64,000 nucleotides of DNA from a virus (taxonomy: Duplodnaviria > Heunggongvirae > Uroviricota > Caudoviricetes): IMG/VR virus record IMGVR_UViG_2737471833_000002, one strand, 5' to 3'. Shown piece after piece: positions 14,965 to 59,402 of the stretch. A program made the translations under genes and the position numbers. Position 1 is the first letter of the stretch. The number at the start of each line of letters is the position of its first letter. Below the pieces are notes generated by a model, which was not told the DNA's origin, searched no databases, and was given only the letters and a program-made list of their open reading frames with translations.

Positions 14965-15810
14965 ATGCTGGCTAAAGTCACTTTCCTGAGCTGTATAACG
15001 ATGAGCGATTTTACTTTTTCTGGCTATGAATTGGCCTGCTTTGTAACACACTCCGGTCTATCTCGTAGCGCCGGGCATATCCTGTCGCAATGTGCAAATC
15101 TAGCGGCAACAACCAGTGAATACTTCATTCACAAGCCTCACCGCCTGATCGCGGCAGAAACTGGTTATAGCCAATCAACCGTCGTTCGTGCATTCCGTGA
15201 AGCTGTAAACAAAGGAATTCTGTCTGTAGAGATTGTTATCGGCGATCACCATGAACGTCGCGCTAACCTGTACCGGTTTACACCATCCTTTTTGGCCTTC
15301 GCACAACAAGCCAAAAATGCGCTGATTGAAAGCAAATTAAAGATCTCTTCAGCGGCAACCAAGGTTAAAGCTGTTCTCGCTAAGACATTGGCTTTATTTA
15401 ATTTTTTATCCACACCCCCATGTCAAAATGATACCCCCTCCCCCTGTCAGGATGACGTGGCAATAAAGAATAAGAAGTCACAAGTTAAAAAAACAAAAAG
15501 ATCAGTTTCCGGCGGTGCCGGAACGACCAGACTCAAAAAATTGACTTCATGGATCGCTGAGGCAAAAGCAAAGGCTGACAATCTGCGGTTATCCAAAAAA
15601 CGCGCTCAAAAACATGAGTTCAAGCAGAAAGTAGAGGCGGCAGCGCGGAAATATGCTTACCTGAAGGACAAGCGTTCTCCTGATATTGGCGGGATATCAA
15701 ACTTCGATAATCTGCCACATTGCATGACGGTAAACGAAGCTCTTAATGCGGTTTTAGCCAAAAATAAAGATAACGAACAATGGGGTATACCGGCAGGATT
15801 CAGAGGGTAA
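14965..15810 (+). CDS. repL: RepL-like lytic replication protein
   Basis: 281 aa, HTH-like N-terminal region, Lys-rich C-terminus; position directly after kilA. Confidence 0.45.
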   Translation: MLAKVTFLSCITMSDFTFSGYELACFVTHSGLSRSAGHILSQCANLAATTSEYFIHKPHRLIAAETGYSQSTVVRAFREAVNKGILSVEIVIGDHHERRANLYRFTPSFLAFAQQAKNALIESKLKISSAATKVKAVLAKTLALFNFLSTPPCQNDTPSPCQDDVAIKNKKSQVKKTKRSVSGGAGTTRLKKLTSWIAEAKAKADNLRLSKKRAQKHEFKQKVEAAARKYAYLKDKRSPDIGGISNFDNLPHCMTVNEALNAVLAKNKDNEQWGIPAGFRG

Positions 15811-27789: not shown

Positions 27790-27905
27790 GTTGATCCCGT
27801 TTCAGGCCATGAACGGCGCGGCTTACAGCGATCCGGGATCTTCTTTGGATCTTCCTAGGTTCTCTTTGGGATCTGTTTATTGGATCTATGCTGTGGATAA
27901 GTTGA
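27790..27905. other. oriR-like origin core: GATC cluster plus DnaA box
   Basis: Five or six GATC sites within about 90 bp and TGTGGATAA (DnaA box) at about 27892. Confidence 0.5.
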
Positions 27906-35357: not shown

Positions 35358-35433
35358 GATGGTGTAGCTCAGCGGTTAGAGCGGTTGACTGTTAATCAAC
35401 GGGTCGATGGTTCAAATCCATCCACCATCGCCA
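35358..35433 (+). tRNA. tRNA-Asn (anticodon GUU)
   Basis: Cloverleaf: acceptor GATGGTG/CACCATC, D-arm GCTC-AGCGGTTA-GAGC, anticodon loop CTGTTAA, T-loop TTCAAAT, encoded CCA. Confidence 0.85.
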
Positions 35434-35435
35434 AT

Positions 35436-35511
35436 GCCGGTTTAGCTCAGTTGGTAGAGCGCCTGCCTTGTAAGCAGGATGTCAGCGGTTCGAGTCCGTT
35501 AATCGGCACCA
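35436..35511 (+). tRNA. tRNA-Thr (anticodon UGU)
   Basis: Cloverleaf: acceptor GCCGGTT/AATCGGC, anticodon stem CCTGC/GCAGG with loop CTTGTAA, T-loop TTCGAGT, encoded CCA; 2 nt after tRNA-Asn. Confidence 0.85.
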
Positions 35512-37041: not shown

Positions 37042-37160
37042 TGGGCTTCTGGGATTTTGCTGACAAGTATCCAATTGTTCTCATTATTATTGTTGCCATA
37101 GTTGTAGGCGGCATTGTTAGCGCCATTGAAGCACTTAGTAAACAGTAATCCGGCCCCTTA
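37041..37160 (+). CDS. small membrane peptide (39 aa)
   Basis: ATG overlaps the previous stop (TGATG); MGFWDFADKYPIVLIIIVAIVVGG...; 3' end overlaps tRNA-Ile by about 10 nt, so doubtful. Confidence 0.25.
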
Positions 37161-37226
37161 GCTCAGTGGTTAGAGCTGGCGACTCATAATCGCACGGTCA
37201 CCGGTTCAAGTCCGGTAGGGGCCACC
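37151..37226 (+). tRNA. tRNA with CAU anticodon, most similar to tRNA-Ile2 (lysidine-dependent)
   Basis: GGCCCCTTAGCTCAGTGGTTAGAGC...CTCATAA...TTCAAGT...AGGGGCCACCA; near-identical framework to E. coli ileX as I remember it; would default-annotate as tRNA-Met. Confidence 0.8.
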
Positions 37227-37513
37227 ATATTTGGTTGTAACACGGCGTCTGGCACATGCGTCGTTAGCGGTCTGGTGACGTTAAAAGGGGGGAACCTTGC
37301 CCCTAGCTCAGGCAACGAACCAGGTAGCCGGAATGTGCAAGCCACCGTTTGTTGTTTCTCGGGTAAAGGGATTCACCATCCTAGCGATTCGGTGTGACAG
37401 CCGGGAAGAGTCCGGCGCATTAATCCTGATTTTCTGGTGATGACTCATATCGTTAGGAGTGATTTGAGTATGCCGATTATATCTGACATTCAGCACGCCT
37501 GGGTGGAGTGCTA

Positions 37514-54758: not shown

Positions 54759-55133
54759 ATGATGACACTAAAACATTTTCTTGACCGCCCATTATGGGCG
54801 GCAGCCGCAGGCTATGACTTTAATTATATGGATTGCATGTCTTATACTGCCAATGCATACGACCATTCGTTCAGCCTGCTGTTTAATTCTTTAAGAATAT
54901 TGCCGGAAACAGAAGTTGGAGAGCTTCATTTATGGATATTGGGCTTTATCGCGGCTGTCGTTGGTATTGCTGTATGGCCTTTTATTTTCTGGCTGGTGGC
55001 TGTTGTAGTGTGGTTTAAGTGCAAGACATACCGGAGAAAGTATTTCTTAGGTGATGGAATGACCGATATTGCCAAAATGAACATTGAAAAATGGACTAAG
55101 GAATGTGAAAAGAAATGGCGCAAAAAGAAATGA
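54759..55133 (+). CDS. small membrane protein
   Basis: Hydrophobic segment ILGFIAAVVGIAVWPFIFWLVAVVVWF. Confidence 0.4.
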   Translation: MMTLKHFLDRPLWAAAAGYDFNYMDCMSYTANAYDHSFSLLFNSLRILPETEVGELHLWILGFIAAVVGIAVWPFIFWLVAVVVWFKCKTYRRKYFLGDGMTDIAKMNIEKWTKECEKKWRKKK

Positions 55134-55789
55134 CTACTCTAACGACAGCATACTTACAGCAATTGGTATTTTTTGCAGGCGAGGCTACTTGTCATCCTGA
55201 CGCAAACTATTTATTGGAATTTGAGAGGTTAGCGTCACCCGGTATCGTTCTGGAACTGGCCCAACAGGTGCTGGCCTTGAGACAAAAAGAGCAACATGAA
55301 AGTAATACGTGTAGATTGAATTTTGAGCAGTGGCTGGAACAGCAACGCGGAAAAATCGATGTGGACTGTGGTTGTGTGTCCACTGAAACATTCATGCACT
55401 GGCTGCGGGTAGCTTACGAGGCTGGCAACTATCCGGATATTCCGGATAGTTCGGTGCCAGCGCCAGGAAAGGGCGTCACCGGTGAACGTATCCGCATTAA
55501 GCCGCATGTTTATCGCGAACTGGTTAACCGTCTCCACGATACAGCGATCAAGTGTGCTGGCACCCAGCAATTACGAGAAAGAATTAGCCGTGTTTTGGGC
55601 GACGTTATTACGCCATATCATCATAAACAAGCCGAGAAAAGCGGTCTGGAAAGGTGTCATCTTGAGGCAGCATTAAACATTAAGCCGGGGCATACGCTTG
55701 GCATTATTGATGCACTGTTGGTTCATAAGATGGCCAGGGCTTTATTGTCGTTGGTGGACGCTGGTGATACAAGCGAGGGTGAAGTATGA
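55115..55789 (+). CDS. hypothetical protein (224 aa)
   Basis: ORF in operon. Confidence 0.4.
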   Translation: MAQKEMTTLTTAYLQQLVFFAGEATCHPDANYLLEFERLASPGIVLELAQQVLALRQKEQHESNTCRLNFEQWLEQQRGKIDVDCGCVSTETFMHWLRVAYEAGNYPDIPDSSVPAPGKGVTGERIRIKPHVYRELVNRLHDTAIKCAGTQQLRERISRVLGDVITPYHHKQAEKSGLERCHLEAALNIKPGHTLGIIDALLVHKMARALLSLVDAGDTSEGEV

Positions 55790-56148
55790 GAGTTGCAGAT
55801 CACATCAAACACCTTGAAAGAATTATCGAAAACGGTGAACTCTTAAGAGATCAGATGAGACGCACGGCAGAAGCCAGGGAGGCGATAATCCGCAGTCAGG
55901 CTGGTAAATTAAAGCAATTGTCAGAGATTAACACGCTATACAAGAACAGACGTAACCGGGCGGTGATGCGGCTTCAGAAAGCACGTAATGAAATTAAATT
56001 GGTGGAGGCAAAACTGAAAAAACAGATCCAGCGTTACGATCAGCAAGATGCTTTTTATGCCGCCATCAAGGCGGCTGCTAATGAAATAGGCATCTGGAAG
56101 TTGCTGGTGGAGAAAGCAAAGACGAAGTTAAATGCCAACGAAAGCTGA
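55786..56148 (+). CDS. coiled-coil protein (120 aa), last gene of the plus-strand accessory operon
   Basis: Overlapping start; helical, Lys/Arg/Glu-rich. Confidence 0.4.
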   Translation: MRVADHIKHLERIIENGELLRDQMRRTAEAREAIIRSQAGKLKQLSEINTLYKNRRNRAVMRLQKARNEIKLVEAKLKKQIQRYDQQDAFYAAIKAAANEIGIWKLLVEKAKTKLNANES

Positions 56149-57223
56149 ACTACAGGTGCCCACCAGCACATACAGAAAATGATTGTTTCCACATCAAGGA
56201 GATTTTAATGTTTCACTGAAACATTAAGTAAGCCAGTGCATAATTCCATTTTTTACTGACCTTAAAAGCAAAATCAAAACGATGATGAGGATAATAGCCA
56301 GAATCTGGCTAATAATAGGCGCATCTAAAAATGCACTCAGGAACTGAAAAAAAGCGTTCATTCAGGTGGTTCCTTGTCAAATGTAAAGGTGCACTTGCTC
56401 ACGTTGACGTAGAAACCCAACCCCTATATAGTTGGATTCGGTGAATGAAAGTCGTTAACGTGAGCTTACGGCACATGTTTTCGGAAAAACATCAGGGAAC
56501 GGCTAATTCCTTGATGCGGGTGGGGTCTGTAATGCAGACCCTATCTATTAACGTCATGATTGCATCTCAAATTTTCTCCTTATCTTCAATTAATCTACAT
56601 TCATTTCATCTGTTAGCCACCACAATATGTAGAAAATGGCCCTCTTGCAAGTGCATAACTTTGTGGATAACTCAGGAAGGAAAAAGTGGCTTTCGCGCAC
56701 CTTCGGTCAGACAAGGTGTCCGGGAAAGTCAACGCAAAGAAAAAAATTGTTAAAAATAACGTTTGTTGGAATTGTATATTTTTATCCCCTTCAATGGTTA
56801 GCATTCTATTAACATCTTTTTTTAGAGACAGAAAAACATATCGTAACAACATATATACAGTGTTAAGAGGCGAGTATTATCCTGCGGTGGGAATTCTGGG
56901 CGCTGTTAGATTCGACTTTCTCAGCAGGATTACATCGTCAACTTGCGACGTTGCCGTATGACTTTCGTGTGATAGGTGACAATGATGCGGCTAGTGAGTT
57001 ACTTGTGAAGTTTTTCGGAAAAGGTTTTGTGGCCTCGGATCTTGATGAGCTACAGCAACATGAAGTGTCTAATTTGATTTTTAGCTATAGCCAATAAGCC
57101 TCCCTCCTCCATCAAGGCCACAATTTGTGACCTTAAACAATTTGTTTTCTGCTTTTTCTTATTTGAGAAAATAACGTTGTTGACAGCTAATAGGCTCATT
57201 GTTGTTATACATGCCTGTATAGA

Positions 57224-57580
57224 TTATGACCGTAAATTATTAGCGGATTTTAAGCCATATTCACCGTTGTAGAAATTACTCATGTTCCATTCATTAGGAA
57301 GTTCTTTTCTGTCCAATGTATAGTGGCGCACGATATAACGATCTTCATCTTCTTCGATGGACAGGCGGACATAGCCAATGTGAATCACCGATACGGGCGG
57401 TGTTCGTATTGCATAGATGTCGCGGAGATATACCGGCAGCTCGACAAATGCATCAGGTGCATCTGTGATGCTCGTTTTTTCACAGTATTCATATAACGCA
57501 TCGTTGATATCGTTAAGAGATTCATGATCGTATATTTCCAGGTAATTACCGCGATCGCGATGGTACTCGATTTTAGCCAT
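57224..57580 (-). CDS. hypothetical protein (118 aa)
   Basis: Abuts the upstream gene; divergent from humD. Confidence 0.4.
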   Translation of the reverse strand: MAKIEYHRDRGNYLEIYDHESLNDINDALYEYCEKTSITDAPDAFVELPVYLRDIYAIRTPPVSVIHIGYVRLSIEEDEDRYIVRHYTLDRKELPNEWNMSNFYNGEYGLKSANNLRS

Positions 57581-58165
57581 TCAAAATCCTCTGTTATCGT
57601 TTTGCATTTCTCTAATCCGGTTCAGAACTACTTCGTGCTGGACTTGGATAGCGGCTTTTTCGTTTTCAAGCCGGGCAATAGACATCTCTAATTCTTTGCT
57701 GTACCAGGCGAGCTGGGCCAGGTTCATCCGGTTGTGGTCGAGAGTTGGAGACACTTCGACGCGATCCCTTTCTTCCTGCTTTAATGAGAAGAGATTCATC
57801 TCATCCCTTGAGGAAAATTCAGCAACAATTTCTTGTTGATGATCCGGTCGCTGCGGCATCCTCGCCAGTATAAATGGCGGTTCTTTTGAAAACATGAATG
57901 ACGGTTTAGACCGTGTTTTGACCCATCTAGCTTGCTGTCTTTCGGCAAGTTCACAGGCTTCATCATAGTTATCTACAAAACCAAGCACGGATGGACGGTC
58001 CCACGCGCCACCATTCAGACAATAAACAAGAATTTTCCCGTCAGGTTCTGTAACTCCATAGGGATGGTCCCACCAGGCGTCCAGCTGGGCTTTGGAGCGT
58101 TTCTCGTTAGGAGTGCAGTCAAAATTTTTGGGCAATGCAGGATCGAGAGGAATGCGGGCAGGCAT
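57581..58165 (-). CDS. hypothetical protein (194 aa), divergent from humD across the LexA box
   Basis: ATG with RBS AAGGAA. Confidence 0.45.
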   Translation of the reverse strand: MPARIPLDPALPKNFDCTPNEKRSKAQLDAWWDHPYGVTEPDGKILVYCLNGGAWDRPSVLGFVDNYDEACELAERQQARWVKTRSKPSFMFSKEPPFILARMPQRPDHQQEIVAEFSSRDEMNLFSLKQEERDRVEVSPTLDHNRMNLAQLAWYSKELEMSIARLENEKAAIQVQHEVVLNRIREMQNDNRGF

Positions 58166-58299
58166 GGCTAATTCCTTATTAATTGATTAGTAACGAGGTT
58201 ACGCTGATCCAGCGGTGATGAATAGTAGCAAAGCGCACAAAGTCATCAGAGGGGTTAAGATCCATAACGCGTTTGCACCAAAGGTGTCTCTTTAATGTA

Positions 58300-58319
58300 T
58301 ACTGTATAAATAAACAGTA
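58300..58319. promoter_or_regulatory. LexA box (SOS operator)
   Basis: TACTGTATAAATAAACAGTA, a CTGT-N8-ACAG palindrome, about 20 bp upstream of humD. Confidence 0.7.
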
Positions 58320-58338
58320 TTATTGAGGTGAAAACGCT

Positions 58339-58728
58339 ATGGGCTTCCCTTCTCCTGCGGCGGATTATGTTGAAAGCCGAATTTCTCTTGATCAGCAACT
58401 AATCAGGCATCCATCAGCAACCTACTTCATGCGGGCAGCTGATAGCCATCACCGTGAGGGAATATTGCAGGGTGCTTTGCTGGTGGTTGATTCTTCGCTT
58501 ACTCCAGTTGATGGTTCGCTGCTTGTGTGCGCTATGGAGGGTGAATATCGCATAAAGAGATACCGAAAGTATCCGCGCCAGCACCTGGAGGATTTAAGCA
58601 CCGGGAAGAAAGAGGCGTTACCAGTAGATGACGATGGATGCACGGGCAGTAATGCTGTGTTTGGTGTGATCACTCATGTCATTAATGATGCCCGAAGTGG
58701 GGAATTTGATGATTGTCCGGTGATTTAA
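58339..58728 (+). CDS. humD: UmuD-like SOS mutagenesis protein (HumD)
   Basis: 129 aa; LexA/UmuD-type C-terminal domain; LexA box upstream; position before phd-doc as in P1. Confidence 0.8.
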   Translation: MGFPSPAADYVESRISLDQQLIRHPSATYFMRAADSHHREGILQGALLVVDSSLTPVDGSLLVCAMEGEYRIKRYRKYPRQHLEDLSTGKKEALPVDDDGCTGSNAVFGVITHVINDARSGEFDDCPVI

Positions 58729-58800
58729 GCTGCAAAGTGCTGGTGCTTTATGCCTGTGAAGTTTATAATTGTGTACACATAACGAGTACACGAGGTGTTT

Positions 58801-59022
58801 ATGCAATCCATTAACTTCCGTACCGCGCGCGGCAACCTTTCTGAAGTGCTCAACAATGTTGAAGCCGGGGAAGAGGTTGAAATCACCCGCAGAGGCCGTG
58901 AGCCAGCAGTAATTGTCAGCAAGGCTACTTTCGAAGCCTACAAAAAAGCGGCGCTGGATGCTGAATTTGCATCCCTGTTTGACACCCTGGACTCCACCAA
59001 CAAGGAACTGGTTAACCGATAA
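58801..59022 (+). CDS. phd: Phd antitoxin
   Basis: [73 protein letters not shown] matches P1 Phd as I remember it; ATG 58801 (track ORF begins at GTG 58795). Confidence 0.9.
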
Positions 59023-59402
59023 TGAGGCATATATCACCGGAAGAACTTATTGCGCTTCATGATGCGAATATAAACCGCTACGGCGGCCTGCCGGGAATGT
59101 CAGATCCGGGTAGGGCAGAGGCCATTATCGGGAGAGTTCAGGCCAGAGTTGCCTACGAAGAGATCACCGACCTTTTCGAAGTCTCCGCCACCTACCTGGT
59201 GGCTACGGCGAGAGGGCATATATTCAATGATGCCAATAAGCGTACCGCGCTAAACAGTGCGCTGTTATTTCTACGCCGTAACGGGGTGCAGGTATTTGAT
59301 TCACCTGAACTGGCAGACCTTACCGTAGGGGCTGCGACTGGCGAGATATCTGTATCTTCTGTCGCCGCCACGTTACGTAGATTGTACGGTTCTGCGGAGT
59401 AG
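59022..59402 (+). CDS. doc: Doc toxin (Fic-fold kinase)
   Basis: 126 aa; start overlaps the phd stop (TAATG); sequence matches P1 Doc as I remember it. Confidence 0.9.

Follow-up and report, generated by a model that had tools for sequence, protein, structure and literature searches.

A candidate minus-strand membrane-peptide gene with an nrdA-like promoter in a coding-poor kilobase of P1/P7-like phage-plasmids

What, if anything, is encoded in a kilobase of phage DNA that holds no convincing long open reading frame (ORF)? The question is raised by positions 56,149 to 57,223 of a 64,000-nucleotide stretch of the Caudoviricetes record IMGVR_UViG_2737471833_000002 (IMG/VR), which we analysed whole and call the window. 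The initial annotation of this region described it as AT-rich and coding-poor, picked out a hydrophobic minus-strand ORF of 45 codons, and proposed a type I toxin or a small-RNA locus. Judged by its sequence, the window is a P1/P7-like phage-plasmid, with Phd and Doc coded at 58795-59402 and HumD at 58339-58728, and the flagged region is P7 DNA, 99.6-100% identical, minus the IS903 of P7. We suggest that its left ~470 base pairs (bp; ~56190-56670) could form one minus-strand gene in phage-plasmids of the P1/P7 family. Its transcription would start near 56615, from a promoter copied from host nrdA, and the transcript would consist of a folded leader of ~250 nucleotides (nt) followed by a 45-residue single-pass membrane peptide, here named ORF45; the right half would have been left by recombination in a region known to be variable. 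We lean, though not heavily, towards this reading, that is, towards an accessory, lineage-restricted membrane-peptide gene with a long regulatory leader and a host-derived nrdA/DnaA-box promoter, with captured host DNA and a defunct primase-like gene as neighbours. Its central features are as follows.

56224..56361, minus strand: ORF45, predicted single-pass membrane peptide of 45 residues, MNAFFQFLSAFLDAPIISQILAIILIIVLILLLRSVKNGIMHWLT
56370..56375, minus strand: Shine-Dalgarno sequence AAGGAA
56362..56615, minus strand: putative 5' leader of the ORF45 mRNA, ~250 nt, its start placed near 56615

The ORF quoted in the initial annotation exists with exactly that sequence, its coordinates (which here include the stop codon) having been one base off, and the AAGGAA ribosome-binding site (RBS) lies as described, at 56375-56370 on the minus strand, 8 nt ahead of the ATG at 56361-56359. 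A TTGACA element had also been noted upstream. It is present at 56380-56375, but it overlaps the RBS only 13 nt before the ATG and therefore cannot be the -35 of ORF45; we rejected it as the promoter on this geometry. The peptide, short and hydrophobic, has a basic tail at its C-terminus, and its maximum 19-residue Kyte-Doolittle mean is 3.1 (2.6 in the divergent allele). A tblastn search recovered ORF45 from 13 phage records. In PLSDB it is complete or nearly so in 216 plasmids, from Escherichia, Salmonella and Shigella. The sequences fall into P7-type, P1-type and divergent allele groups. The P1-type differs from the P7-type by N2T and I16V; the divergent type, seen in 17 PLSDB plasmid records, has 58% amino acid identity, and its locus is placed between hot and a type I restriction-modification operon, not beside pmgT-V. 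The small hydrophobic ORF, its RBS and its start are kept in all three groups, down to that 58% identity.

Several observations suggest that this frame is maintained as a coding sequence. Exactly 45 codons are kept in all 16 distinct sequences, which come from 57 loci. P7-type and divergent ORF45 are separated by 33 substitutions and no indels, whereas five indel events are found in ~140 nt of equally diverged flanks, and the divergent allele retains GAGGA, 8 nt and ATG although the 37 nt ahead of ORF45 are only 64% identical. Replacements between alleles are mostly hydrophobic for hydrophobic and keep the transmembrane segment; simulated random mutation retains its hydrophobicity in only 6.7% of trials. 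The ratio of nonsynonymous to synonymous substitution (dN/dS) is 0.41 (about 0.4 as the corresponding ratio of uncorrected proportions, pN/pS), with a synonymous excess at p = 0.048 in the pairwise comparison and ~0.02 when within-group polymorphisms are pooled. Moreover, two annotation pipelines call ORF45 independently, namely PGAP (WP_000123562.1, the P1 allele, a hypothetical protein in RefSeq) and that of the SJ46 authors (J46_0085), while the P1 and P7 reference records carry no ORF45 annotation. We consider the statistical case for a protein-coding ORF45 to be moderate, and believe that the peptide is quite likely to be translated.

Relatives of ORF45 appear to be confined to its own kind of replicon. 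Family searches in Pfam, NCBIfam, PHROGs and PADLOC gave noise only. A full phmmer scan (1.84 billion representatives) and a word-indexed protein search brought up four proteins only, all of them truncated or frameshifted versions of this peptide. ORF45 peptide patterns had no match in GTDB genomes; there, an 18-mer from the leader gave nothing but chance matches, and a second leader 18-mer in IMG/VR added one locus, also a chance match. On this sequence evidence the family is restricted to P1-like elements, in three allele groups, which limits any analysis of covariation. The four variants (P0001-P0004, from public metagenome and NCBI contigs) are rare; in them a frameshift or an insertion junction replaces the C-terminus of ORF45, and disruption is thus tolerated. 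One further element touches the end of the gene.

56205..56227: perfect 11+11 nt palindrome (inverted repeat I10), possible 3' stem-loop overlapping the ORF45 stop codon

The common P1-type allele carries a deletion of 1 nt that weakens this palindrome, and its significance is therefore doubtful.

If ORF45 is a gene, from where is it transcribed? Upstream of the leader lies a stretch of DNA that also occurs in the bacterial chromosome.

56622..56650, minus strand: predicted nrdA-like promoter, with -35 TTGCAA at 56650-56645, a 17-nt spacer and -10 TATTGT at 56627-56622
56650..56670, minus strand: two DnaA boxes, TTATCCACA at 56670-56662 and TTATGCACT at 56658-56650
56632..56760: 129 bp with ~95% identity to the E. 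coli DNA upstream of nrdA; transcription in the nrdA direction would run toward ORF45

The 129-bp piece is matched in all 5426 complete E. coli genomes. Among the chromosomal matches listed, the 129 bp are covered in each, and the underlying feature is ypaB in most and none in the rest; in the one chromosomal region examined, the homologue lies immediately upstream of nrdA. The likeness to the E. coli nrdAB promoter takes in both DnaA boxes, placed directly upstream of a TTGCAA -35, the same orientation to the downstream gene, and a -10-like hexamer at the same 17-nt spacing. The box TTATCCACA is an exact match to the DnaA-box consensus, and in the alignment both boxes are identical to those of E. 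coli nrdA. Unlike nrdAB, the locus has a 45-residue peptide downstream rather than ribonucleotide reductase, and the homology stops ~14 nt past the -35. The NrdR operator of nrdAB (boxes 1 and 2) lies downstream of the start site (PMC12176259), and it is missing from the captured piece, in which the homology ends before the -10. When P7-type and divergent alleles are compared, identity is 88.5% over the island that runs from the DnaA boxes to the -10 and only 50-72% on either side, which argues for selection on the promoter. With its DnaA boxes and -35 kept and the NrdR operator left behind, the promoter would make ORF45 expression track host DnaA and replication status.

The promoter itself is not new, having been noticed in 1993; on the minus strand of the P1 record M95666 a DnaA box and a predicted 'nrdA-like promoter' are annotated. 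Of the nrdA-upstream homology, P1 and the divergent allele have only ~56 bp; from the sequences, the P7-type may either have kept or have re-acquired the extra host DNA. Two further perfect copies of TTATCCACA occur in the window, at 15406-15414 (+) and 27892-27900 (-), giving a total of three with 0.6 expected. We also noted that CCAACTATATAGGGGTTGG (56415-56439, -), the sequence of leader hairpin H4, looks like an NrdR box (…CTATATATAG…) from which 2 bp are missing. The likeness may be chance or a degenerate remnant; a second NrdR operator was set aside, the leader having only a shortened TATATA palindrome.

Could the leader control translation of the peptide? Its core (~56400-56586, ~190 nt) is 92% identical between the P7-type and divergent alleles, compared with 76% for ORF45 and 64-72% for the flanks. 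Relative to shuffled sequences, the fold z-score is -4.69 for leader plus ORF45, -2.78 for the leader alone and -2.11 for the divergent allele. RNAalifold, run on eight distinct sequences, retains four local hairpins.

56523..56541: hairpin H1, GGGTCTG-taatg-CAGACCC, which has the sole compensatory double change (C-G for U-A in the divergent allele)
56490..56516: hairpin H2, CATCA-GGGAA...TTCC-TTGATG, with invariant stems and three loop substitutions
56397..56465: nested hairpins H3/H4, outer arms GCTCACGTTGACG and CGTTAACGTGAGC, seen as inverted repeat I7 and as RNAalifold helices

Besides the compensatory pair of H1, seven pairs in the leader are kept through one-sided changes, and a C-to-U change in H3/H4 preserves a G-U pair in the minus-sense RNA only. 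Variable columns are depleted in the predicted stems (14 vs 32, p = 0.005), a comparison that is partly circular because the structure comes from the same alignment; the predicted helices pair in 526 of 536 cells in the minus sense and in 447 of 536 in the complement, which is partly circular too. The predicted pairings include AAGGAG/UUCCU and GAGAUGCAAUCAU/AUGAACGC. In the RNAalifold model, the start codon and codons 2-8 pair at long range with an AAGGAG...UUGAGAUGCAAUCAU element lying upstream, and the single-sequence fold of the P7 allele pairs the RBS with codons 6-8 in a local hairpin; either would be predicted to restrain ORF45 translation. We therefore regard the structural case for the leader, which is built on predicted folds, as suggestive: it probably restrains the peptide by sequestering the RBS locally or the start codon at long range. 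A 5'-3' fold-back, of 56508-56519 with 56189-56200, is also possible. A hairpin at 56476-56493 (ATGTTTT/AAAACAT) was discarded as not conserved.

The leader also holds a 25-codon frame (56399-56476, -) that spans H3/H4 and is open in all alleles, has no RBS, and stops 37 nt ahead of the ORF45 ATG, with no mok-like overlap. We rejected both this and a 9-codon leader frame as conserved peptides, the changes being mostly non-synonymous or the frame collapsing; going by its position and openness, translation of the 25-codon frame might be regulatory.

The architecture described so far invites comparison with type I toxin-antitoxin systems, as the initial annotation had proposed. On this explanation ORF45 would be a membrane-damaging toxin whose translation is blocked, or whose mRNA is cleaved, through a plus-strand RNA of ~115 nt, and the module would stabilise the prophage or abort infections on top of phd/doc. 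Two features opposite the leader bear on it.

56404..56432, plus strand: promoter-like TTGACG-17-TATAGT, the predicted PupfN of P1, with 10/12 consensus matches
56439..56553, plus strand: hypothetical antisense RNA of three hairpins, ending at H1 and UAUCUAUU

In the type I loci tisB/IstR-1, zorO/OrzO and ldr/Rdl, a long 5' leader is bound by an antisense RNA upstream of the RBS. Our locus shares with them a hydrophobic peptide of under 60 residues, a few-hundred-nt leader predicted to hide the translation start, an opposite-strand promoter-like site inside that leader, and a putative regulatory RNA sequence conserved better than the peptide, as would be expected if both strands were functional. 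The basic tail of the peptide is in keeping with a toxin. The antisense site is the best promoter-like one in the region, both its hexamers are invariant across all alleles, the candidate antisense RNA (118 nt folded) has a z-score of -4.85 and would pair with the leader 80-190 nt upstream of the RBS, and the plus-strand ORFs past the antisense promoter are unconserved, so that any transcript would be non-coding. Ribosomes could be held in standby, or decoyed, at the leader's AAGGAG, a strong site that is otherwise unused. However, ORF45 has no sequence relationship to any of these toxins and no match to a toxin family in Pfam, NCBIfam, PHROGs or PADLOC, and the locus has none in Rfam. Since the whole block around the hexamers is conserved, their invariance is unspecific, and the region has no excess of promoter-like sites (3, with 3.9 expected from shuffled sequence). 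The antitoxin RNA is hypothetical and has no canonical U-tract terminator, the plus-strand H1 stem running into a U-rich tail. Finally, the element already carries phd/doc, and unlike the SOS (LexA) or constitutive promoters of the tisB, zorO and ldr loci, the one before ORF45 would be a captured nrdA/DnaA-box promoter.

Closer kinship with individual toxins was looked for. A local BLASTP match to LdrD covers 7 of 15 residues, with E = 0.002 for that lone comparison and an approximate LdrD sequence; against Ldr sequences of the same approximate kind, hhalign gives a probability of 8%, which is not significant, and there is no Pfam match. Kinship with Ldr/Fst through a shared 'AP-I-I..IL' motif (…LAAPVIAGILA…) was rejected as unsupported by these comparisons. 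With hok/sok the locus has in common a plasmid-like replicon, a membrane peptide, a folded mRNA with a possible 5'-3' fold-back, and a small leader frame. Unlike Hok, ORF45 lacks the conserved periplasmic domain and has no match to Hok/Gef (PF01848) in Pfam at E up to 10 or in NCBIfam, and unlike mok the 25-codon frame has neither an RBS nor an overlap with ORF45, its amino acid sequence being unconserved beyond the nucleotide level. The layout (small hydrophobic ORF, folded leader, antisense promoter-like site) is compatible with the type I proposal, and, with architecture as its basis, we consider a toxin-antitoxin module plausible though rather unlikely. Somewhat less likely still, in our view, is a hitherto unrecognised, lineage-restricted module of this type whose toxin mRNA comes from the stolen nrdA promoter and is thereby wired to the replication-initiation state of the host; it would be a second, RNA-controlled addiction or abortive switch beside phd/doc.

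How does a minus-strand gene agree with existing annotation, which places plus-strand ORFs here? P1 has upfM, upfN and upfO, of unassigned function, followed by hot, and P7 has upf91.3-91.7 plus IS903. The mechanical ORFs are of 102 residues at 56445-56753 (+), 91 residues at 56686-56961 (+) and 79 residues at 56613-56852 (-), and P7 names the two plus-strand frames upf91.4 and upf91.7. The 102-residue frame is split in P1 into upfN (65 residues) and upfO (46 residues) and leaves a 42-residue ORF in the divergent allele, where the upfM frame has no counterpart; with frames that break between alleles, upfM/upf91.3 and upf91.4 were rejected as genes. The initial statement that there is no convincing ORF of 60 residues or more is thus fair, even though longer mechanical ones exist. 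P1 upfM/N/O and P7 upf91.3-91.7 are the same DNA as here (96-100% identical), but the conserved frame is minus-strand ORF45, and it appears that the reference records of both phages annotate the wrong strand at this place.

Published RNA sequencing (RNA-seq) of P1vir during lytic growth was unstranded (TruSeq v2) and reports a log fold change for each annotated gene (PMC8201110).

pmgV: 8.4 at 10 min, 10.8 at 30 min
upfN interval (leader and promoter): 4.9 at 10 min, 8.2 at 30 min
upfO interval (promoter and upstream DNA): 1.5 at 10 min, 5.3 at 30 min
hot: 6.3 at 10 min, 9.6 at 30 min

From upfN to upfO the values drop roughly eight-fold. A leftward transcript begun at the nrdA-like promoter would explain this drop just as well as a rightward one that stops near H1, and because the data are unstranded they cannot settle the direction of transcription.

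Several results weigh against a minus-strand peptide gene driven by the nrdA-like promoter. As to coding, random substitution leaves the ORF45 frame open in 42% of trials, other, stop-containing frames show pN/pS similar to that of ORF45, and the coding statistics rest on only three allele groups. As to the leader, only local hairpins are common to the alleles and covariation rests on the single pair in H1; of the leader substitutions at paired positions, 15 of 25 break pairs and the minimum-energy fold is not conserved, which leaves a conserved global mRNA fold unsupported. As to the promoter, the -10 falls outside the nrdA-homologous stretch, and the site matches the consensus at only 8/12 positions and hence falls below what our promoter scan reports. 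Finally, the upfN and upfO intervals are among the lowest-valued P1 genes in the lytic RNA-seq table (PMC8201110), knock-down of upfN and upfO by CRISPR interference (CRISPRi) is without effect on P1 plaque formation, and upfM, not testable by CRISPRi, is nonessential according to an earlier deletion survey (PMC10695390). The ORF45 locus is also absent from more distant P1 relatives, RCS47 and D6 among them, RCS47 having a different 116-residue gene at the position.

The first of these groups bears on the possibility that the locus is a non-coding unit, in which the core at 56400-56586 would act as RNA, from one strand or the other, or as DNA bound by protein, and ORF45 would be an accident of AT-rich, T-rich sequence. 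In its favour, the core is conserved better than ORF45, and the frame is often open by chance and is not singled out by pN/pS; the bias of ORF45 substitutions over codon positions 1, 2 and 3 is weak (12, 8 and 13), and both strands fold significantly better than shuffled sequence. Against a purely non-coding unit speak the RBS, spacing and ATG, all kept within a 64%-identical stretch, the absence of indels from ORF45, the replacements that preserve a transmembrane segment and the two independent annotation calls, and no Rfam family matches it. We think it improbable.

The last group bears on a further possibility, a functionless recombination scar whose apparent conservation reflects recent common ancestry only. 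The interval from pmgT to humD is one of eight highly variable regions in a survey of P1-like plasmids (PMC9603915), P7 has its IS903 here, captured host DNA and a primase-like remnant are present, and the absence from RCS47 and D6, the dispensability for lytic growth, the low RNA-seq values and the rare truncated ORF45 variants all fit. Conservation between the diverged lineages is nevertheless patchy in a way that looks functional (promoter island 88.5%, core 92%, surroundings 50-72%), a pattern that shared ancestry alone does not explain, and the unit persists with neighbours that differ by lineage: one flank has pmgV or the hsd genes, and the other has hot or lacks it. We consider a functionless scar very improbable.

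For the right half of the region, recombination is the explanation that we adopt.

56636..56812, plus strand: ypaB-like ORF (upf91.6 of P7), 34 of 46 residues identical to E. coli YpaB, which came with the captured host DNA
56897..57097, plus strand: 3' remnant (last 67 codons) of a primase-like gene, with 87% tblastn identity to the C-terminus of a PhiR41_1 protein

The full gene, of 174 residues, is intact in phage PhiR41_1 (PV340561, 25692-26216), where its product matches PHROG 849 and 17952, 'DNA primase'. The remnant adjoins the site of the IS903 of P7, which is inserted there at the equivalent of ~56970. Judged from these sequence matches, 56670-57223 is recombination debris, made up of captured host DNA, AT-rich filler and a primase-like tail, and not a gene, which accounts for much of the coding-poor look of the region. 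As an explanation of the whole kilobase, the small-RNA locus of the initial annotation loses ground accordingly, about half being explained by the captured DNA and the truncated gene. The AT-richness holds as a dip, but a mild one (GC 0.36-0.42 over 56000-57350 vs 0.45-0.52 in the flanks). Overall, what that annotation observed is confirmed and how it interpreted the locus is partly supported.

Returning to a membrane-peptide gene behind an nrdA-like promoter, we regard the ORF45 unit as accessory, as toxin-antitoxin and other moron-type genes usually are, and suggest that the peptide would most likely act on the inner membrane. ORF45 was already in RefSeq as a hypothetical protein; what is new is that promoter, leader and ORF45 are read together as a unit on the minus strand, and that the annotated strand is corrected for P1 and P7. 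In our literature search no paper mentioned an 'nrdA-like promoter', or ORF45 or its accessions. P1 serves as a reference phage and as a workhorse of cloning and transduction, and plasmids of the P1 kind help resistance genes to spread in Escherichia and Salmonella. Should the promoter behave as its sequence implies, the locus would be a clear case of a phage copying a promoter responsive to the host cell cycle and replication to express an accessory membrane peptide. If the peptide is toxic, it would be a second maintenance or abortive module of P1, which would bear on plasmid stability, on vector engineering with P1 and on the list of type I toxins. If neither is the case, the annotation is still corrected, and the 'empty' kilobase is explained by captured host DNA and a broken primase-like gene.

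The surroundings of the flagged region were examined as well. In BLAST, P7 and several plasmid-prophages called 'P1' are 99.6-99.7% identical to 55700-57700; P1 itself covers ~54% of this query, at ~96% identity and up to 56700.

55786-56148, plus strand: pmgV-type gene, left neighbour
57224-58165, minus strand: lxr/upf93.6 pair, right neighbour
35358-35511 and 37152-37227: tRNA-Asn(GTT), tRNA-Thr(TGT) and a tRNA with a CAT anticodon

These three P1-type tRNAs are presumably the three tRNA genes known from P1. The flagged region contained no tRNA or tmRNA in a scan for both, the covariance models of Rfam 15 gave no match at E up to 1 on either strand of 55000-59000, Pfam had none for the neighbouring genes, and PADLOC had none for ORF45 or five neighbouring proteins. 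A TTGACA followed after 17 nt by TGTTAT/TATACA-like sequence, at 57172-57205 (+), was not reported by the promoter scan; it is aimed into the 3' end of upf93.6 and hence would be antisense. In divergent-allele plasmids (CP057418, 2501-4733, and NZ_CP032074), hsdM and hsdS follow ORF45 on the same strand, in a type I restriction-modification operon that occupies the place of the P1/P7 pmgT-V, and the annotation of P1 records a similarity of the flanks to the EcoDXXI hsd plasmid. The window and P7 lack hot, a homologue of the theta subunit of DNA polymerase III, and have upf93.6 instead; in P1 and in divergent-allele plasmids hot adjoins the nrdA-like promoter (2600-2863 of locus L002). Host-derived replication parts are clustered here, namely hot, the nrdA promoter, the primase remnant and humD.

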